From positions 524,784 through 588,783 of the forward strand of contig CAZTUJ010000001.1 of the NCBI GenBank assembly GCA_964616855.1: a stretch of DNA of 64,000 nt. Reading direction: 5' to 3'. The position numbers and the translations under genes are program-made. The DNA comes from an uncultured Gammaproteobacteria bacterium (GTDB lineage Bacteria; Patescibacteriota; Patescibacteriia; Patescibacteriales; UBA12465). The notes beneath the pieces were generated by a model that was not told the DNA's origin, ran no database searches, and worked only from the letters and a program-made list of their open reading frames with translations. Below are positions 11,369 through 60,837 of the stretch, piece after piece; the stretch's first letter is position 1, and each line of letters begins with the position of its first letter.

Positions 11369-12031
11369 TTAAATAAAGATCAAGGCTTCGGGCAGCTCAA
11401 TAACACTTTTGAATATGTGCGTTACTCTAACCCCAGCCCGAACAAATTCGCCCATCGAATGAAGTCCACTTGTAATGGCCACAAAGCTTAAGGGTGGGTT
11501 GTGTCTGCGAGCAGCTTCTAAATCGTGCTCAATACTGTCGCCAATGTAAAGAGTCTCCAAGGGGTCAAACCCAGCGCCATTCCAAAATTTTTCAAAAATT
11601 CTTGGATCCGGCTTACTGACTCCACGATCGGCAGTCTGGATATGATGAAATAACTTCTCATCAATTCCGTGTTGCTGCAAACGCCAGCTTAAACTATGGG
11701 CATCGCGGTTCGAGGCAATACCGAGGCGATAACGACCAGAGAGAAATTCTAAAGTTTCAACCAGCTTCGCCTGCTGCGGATAAACGGTAGAGTCGGCGAG
11801 TGATAAAAAAGTCTCCGCCACTTTTTTCACATTACCTTCAGACCAGGAACATTGTTGAGAAATTAAGGGGATTAACTCTGATTCCAGTCTACGCCCCCAA
11901 ATCTTCCGCACATCTTCAAAGCTTGGAGCATTTAAACCACAAGTGGTAATAGCTTTTAATAGCGTATTAATACCAACTTTGGTTGAAAGCAACAACACCC
12001 CATCGGCGTCAAAAATTAAATTTTTTTTCAT
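11369..12031 (-). CDS. HAD-superfamily hydrolase (subfamily IA-like phosphatase)
   Basis: 220 aa. Motif I (LIFDADGVLL), motif II (ASN) and a GDSxxD C-terminal motif. Confidence 0.8.
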   Translation of the reverse strand: MKKNLIFDADGVLLLSTKVGINTLLKAITTCGLNAPSFEDVRKIWGRRLESELIPLISQQCSWSEGNVKKVAETFLSLADSTVYPQQAKLVETLEFLSGRYRLGIASNRDAHSLSWRLQQHGIDEKLFHHIQTADRGVSKPDPRIFEKFWNGAGFDPLETLYIGDSIEHDLEAARRHNPPLSFVAITSGLHSMGEFVRAGVRVTHIFKSVIELPEALIFI

Positions 12032-16452: not shown

Positions 16453-16538
16453 AAAAAATAACTGAGGCCATCCGCCTCTTTATCTGGGCTCGCGGCATCC
16501 GTCGCAAAGCCAAAAAAAAATCGTTCTTCTACGCCTAA
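16449..16538 (+). CDS. Possible translationally coupled 29-aa basic peptide
   Basis: ATGA start/stop overlap with the preceding gene. Encodes MKKITEAIRLFIWARGIRRKAKKKSFFYA and ends 18 nt before the terminator hairpin. No homology evidence. Confidence 0.25.
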   Translation: MKKITEAIRLFIWARGIRRKAKKKSFFYA

Positions 16539-16556
16539 TCTGGCGATACAAAAAAA

Positions 16557-16585
16557 GCGATGCTTCCAATTCGAGCATCGCTTTT
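16557..16585 (+). terminator. Rho-independent (bidirectional) terminator
   Basis: GCGAUGCU-9 nt-AGCAUCGC followed by UUUU, with an A-run upstream. Confidence 0.7.
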
Positions 16586-16603
16586 CTTATACCCAAATAT
16601 ATT

Positions 16604-16789
16604 TTAATAGCGACCCTTGTCCTTAATAAAAACCATGAACATCGTCGGGACAATAAAGAGAGTCAGAAAAGAAGACAACATTAAGCCGAAGATAACCGAG
16701 CCGCCCAAGGCCCGCCACATCTCGTTGGACATCGTAATCGGTAAGATACCAAAAATAGTACAAATGGAAGTGATAAAGATGGCTTCCAA
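16604..16789 (-). pseudogene. Remnant of the C-terminus of an RND (AcrB/HAE-type) efflux permease
   Basis: 61 codons starting at TTG. ...FGILPITMSNEMWRALGGSVIFGLMLSSFLTLFIVPTMFMVFIKDK resembles the last two TM helices of RND permeases. The other ~1000 aa are absent, and an in-frame stop lies 6 codons upstream. Confidence 0.5.
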
Positions 16790-16849
16790 TTGATAACTGT
16801 ATTCTTAAAATAAGCTAAAAAGATATTAAAGTCAAACTAAAAACCCGCA

Positions 16850-45246: not shown

Positions 45247-45650
45247 ATTTTTTTAGCTAAGAGCGAAGCCAAACTACGTTTGGCCAAGCTTTGTTTGATA
45301 TCGCCCAGCAACAAGGGCCAAGCACTTTTCAAGCCACATTCCTTAAAATGCGGACAAGTCTTGGCTTCACCGTGGGCACAACGGACCTTAATTTCGCCCG
45401 ACAAGGCTTCTAAGATTTCTAAAACTTTTATTTTCTCAGCGGGGCGAGCTAGATAATAGCCGCCACCTGACCCCTCTCGACTCTTAACCAAACCAGCCGC
45501 TGATAGGGATTTAGCAATCTGACTGAGATAAGGAGAAGACACCCCCAAGCTCTTGGCCAGCGGGGATAAAGGCACAACCTGGCCGGAAAAATTAGCTAAT
45601 TGCAGCATGATTAAGAGACCGTAGTCGGTTTTGGCACTAATTTGAAACAT
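45243..45650 (-). CDS. Rrf2-family transcriptional regulator (IscR/SufR-like, with Cys ligands)
   Basis: 135 aa. Winged HTH (SPYLSQIAKSLSAAGLVKSREGSGGGY) and a C-x6-C-x5-C cluster (RCAHGEAKTCPHFKEC). First gene of the suf operon. Confidence 0.9.
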   Translation of the reverse strand: MFQISAKTDYGLLIMLQLANFSGQVVPLSPLAKSLGVSSPYLSQIAKSLSAAGLVKSREGSGGGYYLARPAEKIKVLEILEALSGEIKVRCAHGEAKTCPHFKECGLKSAWPLLLGDIKQSLAKRSLASLLAKKI

Positions 45651-45664
45651 AGAATAATAAAAGT

Positions 45665-45710
45665 TTAACTATAAGTAAATACATTATAGTTAATTCTCTA
45701 AAAAAATCAA
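45665..45710 (-). promoter_or_regulatory. Putative suf promoter with an overlapping 10-bp inverted repeat (candidate Rrf2 operator)
   Basis: Minus strand: TTGATT (45710..45705), 16-nt spacer, TATAAT (45688..45683). A perfect inverted repeat, TTAACTATAA-9 nt-TTATAGTTAA (45665..45693), spans the -10 element, 15-45 nt upstream of the Rrf2 ATG. Confidence 0.5.
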
Positions 45711-45718
45711 GCACTAAG

Positions 45719-45995
45719 AAAAAAGGCTGTCACGAACGAATCGCAACAGCCCGCCTTTTTCGGACCTAAAGATACCGATGAGCGTTGTATCAAGCCCGAA
45801 AAGACAAAACTAGTGAACTAAAAAGAACTATCTGCCGCGCACGACAGGTCATGGTCCTTTTCCCCAAGATCGCACCCGGGGGCAAGTTCGACTAGTAACC
45901 TTAAACGTATTTCCAAAATACCTATCAAAACCACCGTAGGAAAAATAGGTAATATCTGGAAATAATATAAAGAACGGTCACCTCCTTATACAGTT
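45719..45995 (-). ncRNA. Candidate ~275-nt structured RNA, family not recognised (stand-alone ncRNA or suf leader)
   Basis: Flanked by the consensus promoter at 46002..46030 and the terminator GGCUGU-15 nt-ACAGCC plus U6 (45751..45719). Contains several strong hairpins (plus coordinates 45908..45964, 45810..45895 including 45832..45847, and 45757..45802). No ORF of 60 aa or more on either strand. Confidence 0.5.
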
Positions 45996-46001
45996 ATCCC
46001 T

Positions 46002-46030
46002 ATTATAGTCAGGGGCTAGGAGCCTGTCAA
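46002..46030 (-). promoter_or_regulatory. Perfect-consensus sigma70-type promoter of the candidate RNA
   Basis: Minus strand: TTGACA (46030..46025), 17-nt spacer (ggctcctagcccctgac), TATAAT (46007..46002). Confidence 0.6.
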
Positions 46031-46033
46031 ATC

Positions 46034-46055
46034 AAAAAGCTCCAGGATTGGAGCT
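46034..46055 (-). terminator. Terminator of the PurM-like gene
   Basis: Minus strand: AGCUCCA-AUCC-UGGAGCU followed by UUUUUGAU, 26 nt after the stop at 46081. Confidence 0.7.
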
Positions 46056-46080
46056 TTTCTTTTACAAAAAATAACAAATC

Positions 46081-47259
46081 TTAATATTGAAACTCCCCAA
46101 AAGGAGTGCGCAGGATTACCTCATTTTGAGGTTGGAGAGAGTCAACGCATTCACCCAAAACTGGAGCCTGGAGCTGACAGAATTTAGCGGTCTCTTCAAC
46201 GGCGGCCAGAAATACTTTATCCGGTTCACCAATGATATCGATACCGATACCGCCATTAAATGATCGGTACATGTTGCGCCAAAGCTCTTTGCTTTCTGTT
46301 TTAATTAAGCGGAAAATGGGCGGAGGCGGAGGCATGTGTTTGCGATAAGTAATACCACCAGTACCAACGCGGCGGATTTTAGTGGCGCCGCCGCCAGTGT
46401 TCATGCTAATACCATGCAGAAATTGCAAAGCACCAGCTTCTTTGAGTAAGTCAATCAATTTCTTGATGACGAAGGCCCACTGACGTGTAGGCGAGGTTAA
46501 AGCCTCTCCCACCGACATCCCGGATAATTCCTGGAGGTAGTCATTACTCAAATAGCGACCGCGATAGGCATTACGCCCTCTAAGCTGCGGGTATTTCTGA
46601 TTGTAGTCCGTCCGCATTAAGACGGTGCGGCCCATGGTCAGGCCGTTGGACATAATACCAGAGTTAAGTTGGTCCTCCCACGACGCTTGGCCATCACTTT
46701 GGAAGCCAAAGATAATGTCGCCCGCCCGTACATTGCCAGTGATTAACTCAGATTTCTGATTCCAGGCAGTGACGGCAACGTTGAAAACGCCGCTGAGCAC
46801 CTGATCAGGAAGATCGGCGGTCTCGCCGCCGAGAAATTTAATCTGGAAGCCATGGTCTTCATAAAGGGACAAAACTTCCTGAAATCTTCTAGCGACAGCG
46901 GACATAACTACTTTCTTTAAATCTCCCGGTAGGCTTAAATCAAGCACATCGGAAATAATCCAGGGCCCAGAAACGAAACCACTGGCAGCGATATCACCGG
47001 CATTCATACCGATTCCATCATCAACCATGCCGCCAAAAATATTGGCATTGCCGGTTTCATAATAATGCAAAAGCCGCTGGATGAATTTACTGCCATCACC
47101 GTCCTGATGTTGAGTGAGGGCACGGGTAGGGTCAAAGGGGTCCGTGACAATGTTCACGAAAGCCCCAGGGTACTCATTGTTGATAATTTTTTCAAAAGCT
47201 TCTCTGACAGAATCTTTGTCGGGGTCAACGCCCATGTTTTCATACTGGCTATTATTCAT
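46081..47259 (-). CDS. PurM-like protein (AIR synthase-related family), divergent
   Basis: NMGVDPDKDSVREAF, QDGDGSKF, GGETADLP and MYRSFNGGIGIDI are collinear with PurM motifs. Start set at MNNSQYENMG (47259), because the track's upstream extension contains the preceding gene's terminator. Confidence 0.7.
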   Translation of the reverse strand: MNNSQYENMGVDPDKDSVREAFEKIINNEYPGAFVNIVTDPFDPTRALTQHQDGDGSKFIQRLLHYYETGNANIFGGMVDDGIGMNAGDIAASGFVSGPWIISDVLDLSLPGDLKKVVMSAVARRFQEVLSLYEDHGFQIKFLGGETADLPDQVLSGVFNVAVTAWNQKSELITGNVRAGDIIFGFQSDGQASWEDQLNSGIMSNGLTMGRTVLMRTDYNQKYPQLRGRNAYRGRYLSNDYLQELSGMSVGEALTSPTRQWAFVIKKLIDLLKEAGALQFLHGISMNTGGGATKIRRVGTGGITYRKHMPPPPPIFRLIKTESKELWRNMYRSFNGGIGIDIIGEPDKVFLAAVEETAKFCQLQAPVLGECVDSLQPQNEVILRTPFGEFQY

Positions 47260-47361
47260 GCTGATAGGGATTAGGGTGAGTATTAAGATGATTTTTTTAA
47301 GAACGATTAATAGGTTGACATTAATATAAAAATGAAAAATAGTCAAATGGAAAGAGTCCAC

Positions 47362-47388
47362 AAAAAACAGGCCATCAGCCTGTTTTTT
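47362..47388 (-). terminator. Terminator of the DMT-riboflavin kinase gene
   Basis: AAAAAACAGGC-5 nt loop-GCCUGUUUUUU, 19 nt after the stop at 47407. Confidence 0.7.
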
Positions 47389-47406
47389 AGATAAAACCAT
47401 TATATA

Positions 47407-60467: not shown

Positions 60468-60549
60468 AATTGCATGGGGTGGCCGTGACAAGCGGCCGAT
60501 TAAAAACTAAAGCTTATAAAAACCGGACCGCAAAGGCGGCCGGTATAAT

Positions 60550-60705
60550 TTATTTCGTTTCTTTATGGAGAGTATGCTTCTTGCAGGTGTTGCAATACTT
60601 CTTCATTTCCAACCTTTCCTTCAAGACTTTCTTATTCTTGTGAGAAAAATAGTTGACGGTTTTGCACTCAGTGCATTCCAACTTGATCATGTTGTCCTGG
60701 GACAT
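60550..60705 (-). CDS. rpmG: 50S ribosomal protein L33
   Basis: Below the ORF-track cutoff. My translation: [51 protein letters not shown] (51 aa), the L33 zinc-ribbon pattern C-x2-C...C-x2-C...HKE.K. The plus-strand ORF 60565..60747 is its shadow. Confidence 0.9.
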
Positions 60706-60837
60706 AAAAATCACAAACGACCAAGACGCGATTCCCTAAAAGCTTGAACACGCGCCAGTCGTACAATTTTACAAATTTATTACTCTAATACAATAAATAA
60801 AAATCAGACAAAAGTCAAATATTACGGCTAAGATTTC

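Follow-up and report, generated by a model that had tools for sequence, protein, structure and literature searches.

The 64,000-nt stretch of DNA analysed here (positions 524,784 to 588,783 of contig CAZTUJ010000001.1, hereafter the window), from a Patescibacteria bacterium with a very small genome, probably carries a gene for an independently transcribed, stable and structured small RNA (sRNA). The gene lies on the minus strand at roughly 45995..45718, between a PurM-like gene and the suf operon for iron-sulphur (Fe-S) assembly, and its predicted product of ~277 nt belongs to no described family and has so far been found only in a narrow lineage of Falkowbacteria-like Patescibacteria. The existence of the RNA gene and its independence of its neighbours are well supported; its mode of action we infer. 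As in trans-acting sRNA genes, the unit has its own promoter, its own intrinsic terminator and no conserved open reading frame (ORF).

A preliminary description of the window had placed a TTGACA-17-TATAAT promoter and a strong intrinsic terminator on the minus strand in this region, and both were recovered. The elements of the transcription unit, in the order in which they would be met by RNA polymerase, are as follows.

46034..46058, minus strand: intrinsic terminator of the upstream PurM-like gene (gene end 46081), AAAAGCUCC-loop-GGAGCUUUUU.

46030..46002, minus strand: RNA promoter, with TTGACA (46030-46025), a 17-nt spacer and TATAAT (46007-46002), matching the consensus at 12/12 positions.

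~45995..45718, minus strand: predicted RNA transcript, ~277 nt, with a presumed transcription start site near 45995.

45718..45752, minus strand: intrinsic terminator of the RNA, a 12-bp stem (45752..45724, 6 G-C pairs) with a 5-nt loop, followed by UUUUUU.

By our own arithmetic only ~0.02 promoters with a 12/12 match and optimal spacing are expected per 128 kb. The terminator of the PurM-like gene, which would shield the RNA promoter from upstream transcription, is kept in the related loci L003 and L008 (L numbers denote such loci) with compensating loop and stem changes, and the terminator of the RNA itself shows compensatory and wobble changes in L003, L008, L081 and L009. Terminators with similar GCUG.. 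stems were seen by eye at the matching position in relatives that lack the RNA, and an nhmmer comparison found their similarity to the RNA non-significant. The preliminary description had called 45651-46080 the only large ORF-free gap of the window. Two further gaps of at least 340 nt (16453..16849 and 60492..60837) show that it is not the only one; neither of them is empty, however, and the point broadly stands.

The predicted transcript is considerably more stable than its composition would suggest, with a minimum free energy (MFE) of -99.4 kcal/mol compared with -72.3 ± 4.8 kcal/mol for 200 dinucleotide shuffles (z = -5.63), none of which was as stable. The stems picked out earlier by eye at 45908..45964, 45810..45895, 45832..45847 and 45757..45802 are all present in both the MFE and the consensus folds, in which the following parts can be distinguished.

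45965..45991, minus strand: H1, the 5′ hairpin (-6.8 kcal/mol), which bears UAAGGAGGUGA at 45988-45978.

45909..45963, minus strand: H2, a long hairpin with hardly any change in its loop and 3′ strand (CGGUGGUUUUGAUAGGUAUUU), whereas the 5′ strand varies with its pairs kept.

45809..45896, minus strand: a three-way junction formed by P1 (ACUAGU-C-GAACU / AGUUC-ACUAGU), P2 (a CCCC...GGGG hairpin) and P3 (AAAAGGAC/GUUCUUUU and CUGUCG-UGCG-CGGCAG, with an internal loop between them).

45853-45848 / 45831-45829, minus strand: the P3 internal loop, CAUGAC / AUA, which is kink-turn-like.

45755..45804, minus strand: H5, a hairpin with the 11-nt loop AACGCUCAUCG (45786-45776) closed by AC/GU.

Substitutions in the H2 stem are mostly one-sided and wobble-compatible. 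The H5 loop is identical at 10/11 positions across all homologues, with only the seventh varying (AACGCUNAUCG), and its positions are mostly predicted to be unpaired (probability 0.4-1.0), making it the best candidate for a recognition element. The P3 internal loop also merits attention. A kink-turn consists of a C-stem, a 3-nt bulge, tandem sheared G.A / A.G pairs and an NC stem, and the corresponding loop of the divergent homologue L009 (L009:220-255) fits this consensus exactly (GGC-GAU-GA-CACAUUG ... CAGUGUG-GA-GCC). In the window type (45829-45853) the bulged strand, GGAC-CAU-GA-C, is the same as the consensus, but the opposite strand reads AUA or CUA in place of GA, so that 2b.2n would be an unusual A.U pair. 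The loop may thus offer a lead towards a protein partner, and we take it as a lead and not as a result. A likeness of AGGUCCGAAAAAGG to domain IV of the signal recognition particle (SRP) RNA was considered and dropped: judged by eye, the sequence is a stem strand in the window type and is missing from L009.

Some 40 related loci were retrieved with two kinds of anchor, the proteins encoded next to the RNA and the highly conserved suf operator TTAACTATAAT-N-TTATAGTT. Copies of the RNA were found in L001 and L002 (identical to the window), L008 (93%), L081, L082, L003 (84%) and L075 (3′ end only), giving four close variants of the window type and a fifth known from its 3′ end, and a divergent, shorter form occurs in L009, L086 and L087. 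All copies found lie directly upstream of the suf promoter, although the left-hand neighbour differs in L087 and probably also at the P0004 locus described below, and homologues were found only in close relatives among the Falkowbacteria-like Patescibacteria. L009 and the window type have in common a core of equal length (188 nt) comprising the three-way junction, the AUGAC internal loop, the AACGCUNAUCG hairpin closed by AC/GU and the terminator. L009 lacks H1, with its Shine-Dalgarno (SD)-like sequence, and also H2, and carries a different 5′ hairpin instead.

Covariation among these syntenic relatives, which the preliminary description had looked to as a check, favours the fold. Stem substitutions among the five close variants are mostly wobble-compatible, with two pairs fully compensated. 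In the covariance-model alignment of the core (51 pairs, five distinct sequences) 92.8% of cells are paired, and 19/51 pairs have changed on both sides and still pair, compared with 5.0 ± 1.9 in 500 column shuffles and 3-8 when the partner was slid by 1-3 columns. Such both-side changes affect, among others, P1 (6/11 pairs), P3b (4/6 pairs) and the lower stem of H5 (7/11 pairs), where the two strands have effectively been swapped (CUUUUCG...CGAAAAG in the window type versus CGAAAG...CUUUUCG in L009). The model found no further match in ~290 kb of related loci, a weak match in L067 being discarded because it falls inside a transporter gene, and no second copy of the RNA was found in the window or in the ~0.68 Mb of fetched loci. 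Among viral sequences in IMG/VR, the pattern ATGAC-N-ACAACGCTNATCGG gave 37 matches, all unrelated, mostly in G+C-rich sequence and attributable to chance; a stricter pattern gave a single match, which the covariance model rejected.

Sequence constraint was assessed by comparing the window with L003. At four-fold degenerate sites, identity ranges from 52 to 72% across Rrf2, sufC, sufB and the PurM-like gene (308/500, or 62%, in total), whereas the RNA is 84% identical overall, with 240/286 positions matching against ~176 expected at 62% (our own calculation). The unit is therefore under purifying selection. By segment, identity falls from 97% in the promoter and 95% in H1 to 84% in H5, 80% in the three-way junction and 73% in H2, so that the promoter and H1 are the most tightly constrained.

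Because the RNA stands immediately before suf, its relation to that operon required particular care. Rrf2 starts with the ATG at 45650, followed on the minus strand by sufC, sufB and sufD, and the preliminary description had noted that a separate suf promoter and operator appeared to lie downstream of the RNA terminator. Both were identified.

45710-45705 and 45688-45683, minus strand: suf promoter, TTGATT and TATAAT separated by a 16-nt spacer, with a 10/12 match to consensus; not part of the RNA.

45693-45665, minus strand: presumed Rrf2 operator, a perfect 10-bp inverted repeat, TTAACTATAA-N9-TTATAGTTAA, overlapping the suf promoter.

The inverted repeat is presumably an autoregulatory operator for Rrf2. 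The promoter-operator was recovered from every related locus, over 15 distinct ones in all, irrespective of the sequence in front of it. The operator is almost invariant where Rrf2 is 72-100% identical (L009-L013, L054-L061, L064, L070, L071, L076, L077 and L080). It also occurs in L067 and L068, there ahead of an unrelated gene for a lipoprotein-like product, and may thus serve a small regulon. In L054, L011-L013, L061 and L094-97 there is no RNA and an identical suf promoter-operator follows the terminator of the upstream gene alone; altogether, suf and its promoter-operator are kept without the RNA in at least six relative lineages. Since it is retained where the RNA is missing, the suf promoter-operator is a separate unit, and its retention argues against the RNA being an obligatory leader or attenuator.

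A role in cis would have the RNA act as a leader or attenuator of suf that senses Fe-S status, cysteine or a metabolite, with conditional read-through from the strong promoter driving Rrf2-sufCBDS. Consistent with this, every homologue is co-oriented with suf and directly upstream of it, the distance from the terminator to the Rrf2 ATG is only ~70 nt, and the core is of riboswitch-like size with a three-way-junction architecture. Co-orientation is to be expected in any case, however, as 56/65 genes are on the minus strand. Moreover, between the terminator and Rrf2 lie a full promoter (10/12) and an operator of the Rrf2 type, and relatives lacking the RNA have kept both. The terminator is also strong (12 bp, U6). 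The one alternative pairing seen by eye, between the 3′ strand of P3b (CGGCAG) and the 5′ arm of the terminator (CUGUUG), is impossible in L009, and in other relatives unrelated units or a tRNA take the place of the RNA. We consider a leader function unlikely. The stand-alone RNA gene, which the preliminary description had favoured, is the better supported: suf keeps its own promoter-operator where the RNA is missing, and the same slot holds unrelated units or tRNA-Trp in other genomes.

This slot, bounded by the upstream terminator and the suf promoter, appears to be a variable site that hosts different stable-RNA genes. Units unrelated to the window RNA occupy it in L056, L058 (two units), L059, L064, L070, L071 and L077, placed just upstream of the suf promoter (L056:2540-2900; L058:2290-2650; L059:2740-2930). 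In each, a TTGACA-17-TAnnAT promoter is followed by an A/U-rich body (90-280 nt) and a terminator, with no Rfam match and no conserved ORF; their G+C content is 0.27-0.36, compared with 0.44 in the window RNA. Such units might represent additional sRNAs peculiar to their lineages, or else units in decay. Homology between them and the window RNA was considered and rejected, as nhmmer gave weak, non-significant similarity in the terminator region only, the covariance model gave none, and there were no common 8-mers beyond chance. Eight 8-mers are common to at least three types of slot unit, most of them from the terminator, compared with 0.87 non-low-complexity 8-mers in shuffled units. The motif GGUGGUUU(U) in the loop of H2 (~45930-45938) is also present in the L059 and L071 units, and in two of the three it lies within a hairpin loop, adjoining the 3′ strand of the stem; its presence in three unit types carries little weight because shuffled units share comparable 8-mers about as often.

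In L080 the slot holds a tRNA-Trp gene (anticodon CCA; L080:2122-2193, minus strand), with promoter-like and terminator-like sequence seen by eye; it was called by ARAGORN and scores below the gathering threshold of the Rfam tRNA model. At the P0004 locus, where the PurM-like protein is 70% identical, a gene for an 876-residue AAA_11/AAA_12 helicase and a gene for a 102-residue protein stand between the PurM-like gene and Rrf2, leaving a 404-nt gap upstream of Rrf2. If present there, the RNA would have stayed with suf and not with the PurM-like gene.

Such turnover raises the question of whether the unit does anything at all. It could be a fast-evolving unit of little or no function, in which a promoter and terminator left over in a recombination-prone slot enclose a body that folds by chance, as the remnant of an inserted element or a lost gene. 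The slot is indeed highly variable even among relatives whose Rrf2 is 72-87% identical, the unit types have no common sequence except the terminator, H2 at 73% identity is little above the four-fold sites, and another gap of the window contains a probable pseudogene fragment. Against this, the RNA as a whole is significantly more conserved than four-fold sites (the 240/286 positions given above against ~176), its promoter and H1 are 95-97% identical, and its pairs have been maintained through changes on both sides, even in L009. The 11-nt loop of H5 is conserved across the homologues, the G+C content of 0.44 lies above the 0.27-0.36 of the other units, and the fold is unusually stable (z = -5.6). 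A functionless remnant is accordingly an improbable explanation, and we retain that of a functional RNA gene.

The RNA could not be assigned to a known family. Rfam 15 was searched at the gathering score across the entire window and, at E <= 10, with the region and its L003 and L009 homologues. At the gathering score no family covers the RNA, the only matches in the window being four tRNAs; at E <= 10 the window, L003 and L009 versions gave scattered chance matches of 12-22 bits, all well short of the gathering score, none of which recurs across the homologues and none of which is credible. ARAGORN found no tRNA or transfer-messenger RNA (tmRNA) in 45500-46200, and blastn against phage and plasmid collections gave no match to the RNA. 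Several families were considered individually. For 6S RNA (RF00013) there is no Rfam match, and the predicted fold has five separate domains and a 3′ terminator hairpin in place of a rod with paired ends and a central bubble. SRP RNA, RNase P RNA and tmRNA have no Rfam or ARAGORN match, and their hallmarks (the GGAA loop of domain IV, the P4 sequence GAGGAAAGUCC, and tRNA-like ends with a tag ORF, respectively) are not in the sequence. Nor did raiA, ROOL, HEARO, OLE, GOLLD or the riboswitch classes match the window, L003 or L009 versions in Rfam. The Rfam and ARAGORN scans thus bear out the preliminary description, which had seen no hallmark of RNase P, tmRNA, SRP, the T-box or the B12 element; its term 'orphan' holds only in the sense of 'no described family'.

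Coding potential is similarly poor. The ORFs in the gap encode only 25-38 residues from GTG or TTG starts and are broken by 1-nt indels between close relatives, indicating that they are not conserved; the 38-codon GTG ORF (45934..45818), for example, is broken in L003 and L008. No conserved ORF with a usable start codon was found in the RNA or its homologues, L009 included. The unit might still be imagined as an mRNA for a tiny hydrophobic peptide (a type I toxin, for instance), with a strong SD sequence and a start at the GUG in GGAGGUGA or at a non-canonical codon. The strongest SD-like sequence of the 64-kb window does lie near the 5′ end of the RNA, and by hand translation the frame from the GUG at 45980 gives similar hydrophobic peptides of 18-25 residues in the window, L081 and L003. 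However, the spacing between the SD core and the GUG in GGAGGUGA is zero, with no AUG, GUG or UUG 5-12 nt downstream of the SD-like sequence; a 1-nt insertion in L008 shifts the GUG frame after six codons; the 38-codon GTG ORF is interrupted in two relatives; L009 has neither SD nor ORF; and this genome starts translation without SD sequences. A peptide-coding function is therefore highly improbable, and the unit is best treated as a non-coding RNA (ncRNA) gene.

The SD-like sequence at the 5′ end nonetheless calls for an explanation. UAAGGAGGUGA (45988..45978) is an 11-nt complement to the canonical 3′ tail of 16S rRNA and has its sole exact copy in the 64-kb window here, ~8-18 nt from the presumed transcription start. 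The preliminary description had remarked on this long complement and on the absence of a usable start codon behind it, and no AUG, GUG or UUG was found at a workable spacing. It had also judged that the real genes here lack a strong SD, and 63/65 ORF starts in the window are without an SD-like motif. Start codons are preceded by A/U-rich sequence, of which AATAATTTT-ATG is one case, a trait known also from Bacteroidia. Since the genome does not use SD sequences, the 11-nt complement is unlikely to be an initiation signal. The duplex of UAAGGAGGUGA with the canonical 16S tail is predicted at -17 to -21 kcal/mol, compared with -6.8 kcal/mol for H1, which partly hides it. The element with UAAGGAGGUGA is invariant in 5/5 window-type sequences and missing in L009, and because L009 does without it, the element is accessory and not part of the core.

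Most plausibly, by analogy, UAAGGAGGUGA is a 5′ stabiliser resembling the stabilising SD (STAB-SD) element of Bacillus thuringiensis cry3A, an SD-like sequence near the 5′ end that binds the 30S subunit and blocks RNase J without initiating translation (PMC4113751). In sequence the likeness is good: UAAGGAGGUGA is SD-like, is close to the 5′ end, is complementary to the (assumed) 16S tail and has no start codon after it. Genomes of the Candidate Phyla Radiation (CPR) are reported to retain RNase J (PMC12641178); no rnj gene was present among the eight large ORFs of the window that were scanned. SD-blind Bacteroidia keep their anti-SD (PMC7797042, PMC9976891), so that an idle but present 16S tail is plausible here too. 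A bolder proposal is that the RNA docks on the 30S subunit through its 11-nt complement to such an idle tail, as a ribosome-associated ncRNA whose core and loop would act on a subset of ribosomes, either modulating them or bringing them a partner. We think this quite unlikely; if true, it would make the SD-like sequence more than a stabiliser.

Taken together, we propose that the unit is a stand-alone sRNA gene whose product would act in trans. A partner, whether RNA or protein, would be recognised through the core, with its three-way junction, kink-turn-like loop and 11-nt H5 loop. H1 and the 11-nt anti-anti-SD within it would serve as a STAB-SD-type stabiliser, with the 30S subunit or the hairpin itself blocking 5′-to-3′ decay by RNase J. 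The terminator of the RNA may have a second use, in insulating the regulated suf promoter from the very strong constitutive promoter of the RNA.

Several points weigh against this account. The distinct sequences number just five or six and come from two or three lineages. The covariation counted derives mostly from a single divergent sequence, L009; its alignment was made with a model of the same structure, which recognises it at a low score (18.3 bits, E ~0.05). H1, with the SD-like sequence, and H2 are missing in L009 and so do not belong to the conserved core. The survey of distribution covered suf loci and the ~0.68 Mb of fetched DNA, and 'narrow' accordingly means this subclade and this locus. 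The figures for pairing between the SD-like and anti-SD sequences assume the canonical 16S tail and not that of this organism. Finally, searches for targets gave no lead. The strongest pairing that the H5 loop makes anywhere in the 64 kb has -20.2 kcal/mol and falls near 12010, where a HAD-like gene starts; it is no better than what 11/40 shuffled loops reached, and five candidate seeds compared with 64 translation-initiation regions, including those of the suf genes, produced no outlier.

The genes around the RNA are consistent with the lineage named above. Homologues of the upstream PurM-like protein are annotated as Falkowbacteria, Moranbacteria or 'Patescibacteria group', and the Rrf2-anchored loci include one metagenome-assembled genome of Candidatus Falkowbacteria. 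The PurM-like protein has no Pfam match and is named a cyclo-ligase by JGI. Its 439-codon ORF (46081-47400, minus strand) is longer than its homologues, which have 391-399 residues; a start at 47256 would give 391 residues, collinear with L003, and the mechanically called ORF is probably ~47 codons too long.

The two other gaps of the window each hold a coding remnant or gene. In 60492..60837 there is an unlisted 49-codon rpmG (L33) gene (60518-60783, minus strand) with a CxxC...CxxC pattern, preceded by a hairpin-containing leader of ~95 nt downstream of a promoter-like TTGACT-17-TATTGT. In 16453..16849 the sequence at 16458-16800 (minus strand) reads by eye as the C-terminal transmembrane end of an RND/AcrB-like efflux transporter (...FLTLFIVPTMFMVFIKDKGRY*), followed by hairpins; it probably represents a fragment of a pseudogene.

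Although much of bacterial diversity belongs to the Patescibacteria (CPR), no described regulatory RNA or sRNA family was found for them in the literature searched. For transcriptomics in enrichment cultures or metagenomes the locus provides a tangible candidate, whose fold is conserved, whose promoter is close to ideal and whose core motif is defined. It also reveals a fast-changing slot beside an Fe-S assembly operon in which different lineages carry different stable-RNA genes, and it raises the question of what role a very long anti-anti-SD might have in a genome whose genes do without SD sequences. The RNA itself is known from only a handful of closely related genomes, and its function is proposed only.

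Three known systems provide a useful comparison. Like the STAB-SD of cry3A, the 5′ element is complementary to the 3′ end of 16S rRNA and would not direct initiation, and the host lineage keeps RNase J (PMC12641178). It differs in being carried on a non-coding RNA, partly inside a hairpin, in a genome otherwise without SD use, and in its absence from the divergent homologue L009. The extended SD of rpsU in SD-blind Bacteroidia (PMC9976891, PMC7797042) is likewise a rare, very long SD in an SD-poor genome and suggests a special use of the anti-SD; in Bacteroidia, however, a real start codon follows and the element autoregulates bS21, whereas here no ORF follows.

The closest resemblance in overall design is to stand-alone bacterial sRNAs, such as the large multi-hairpin regulatory RNAs of Gram-positive bacteria. 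These too have a sigma-70-type promoter, an intrinsic terminator, no ORF and a multi-hairpin fold, with a conserved unpaired loop as a possible seed, a narrow range and a rapid turnover of loci. The RNA described here differs from them in that no target complementarity was found within the 64 kb, in its size and architecture, ~277 nt with a three-way junction being larger and more elaborate than most base-pairing sRNAs, and in its host, which is a CPR bacterium.

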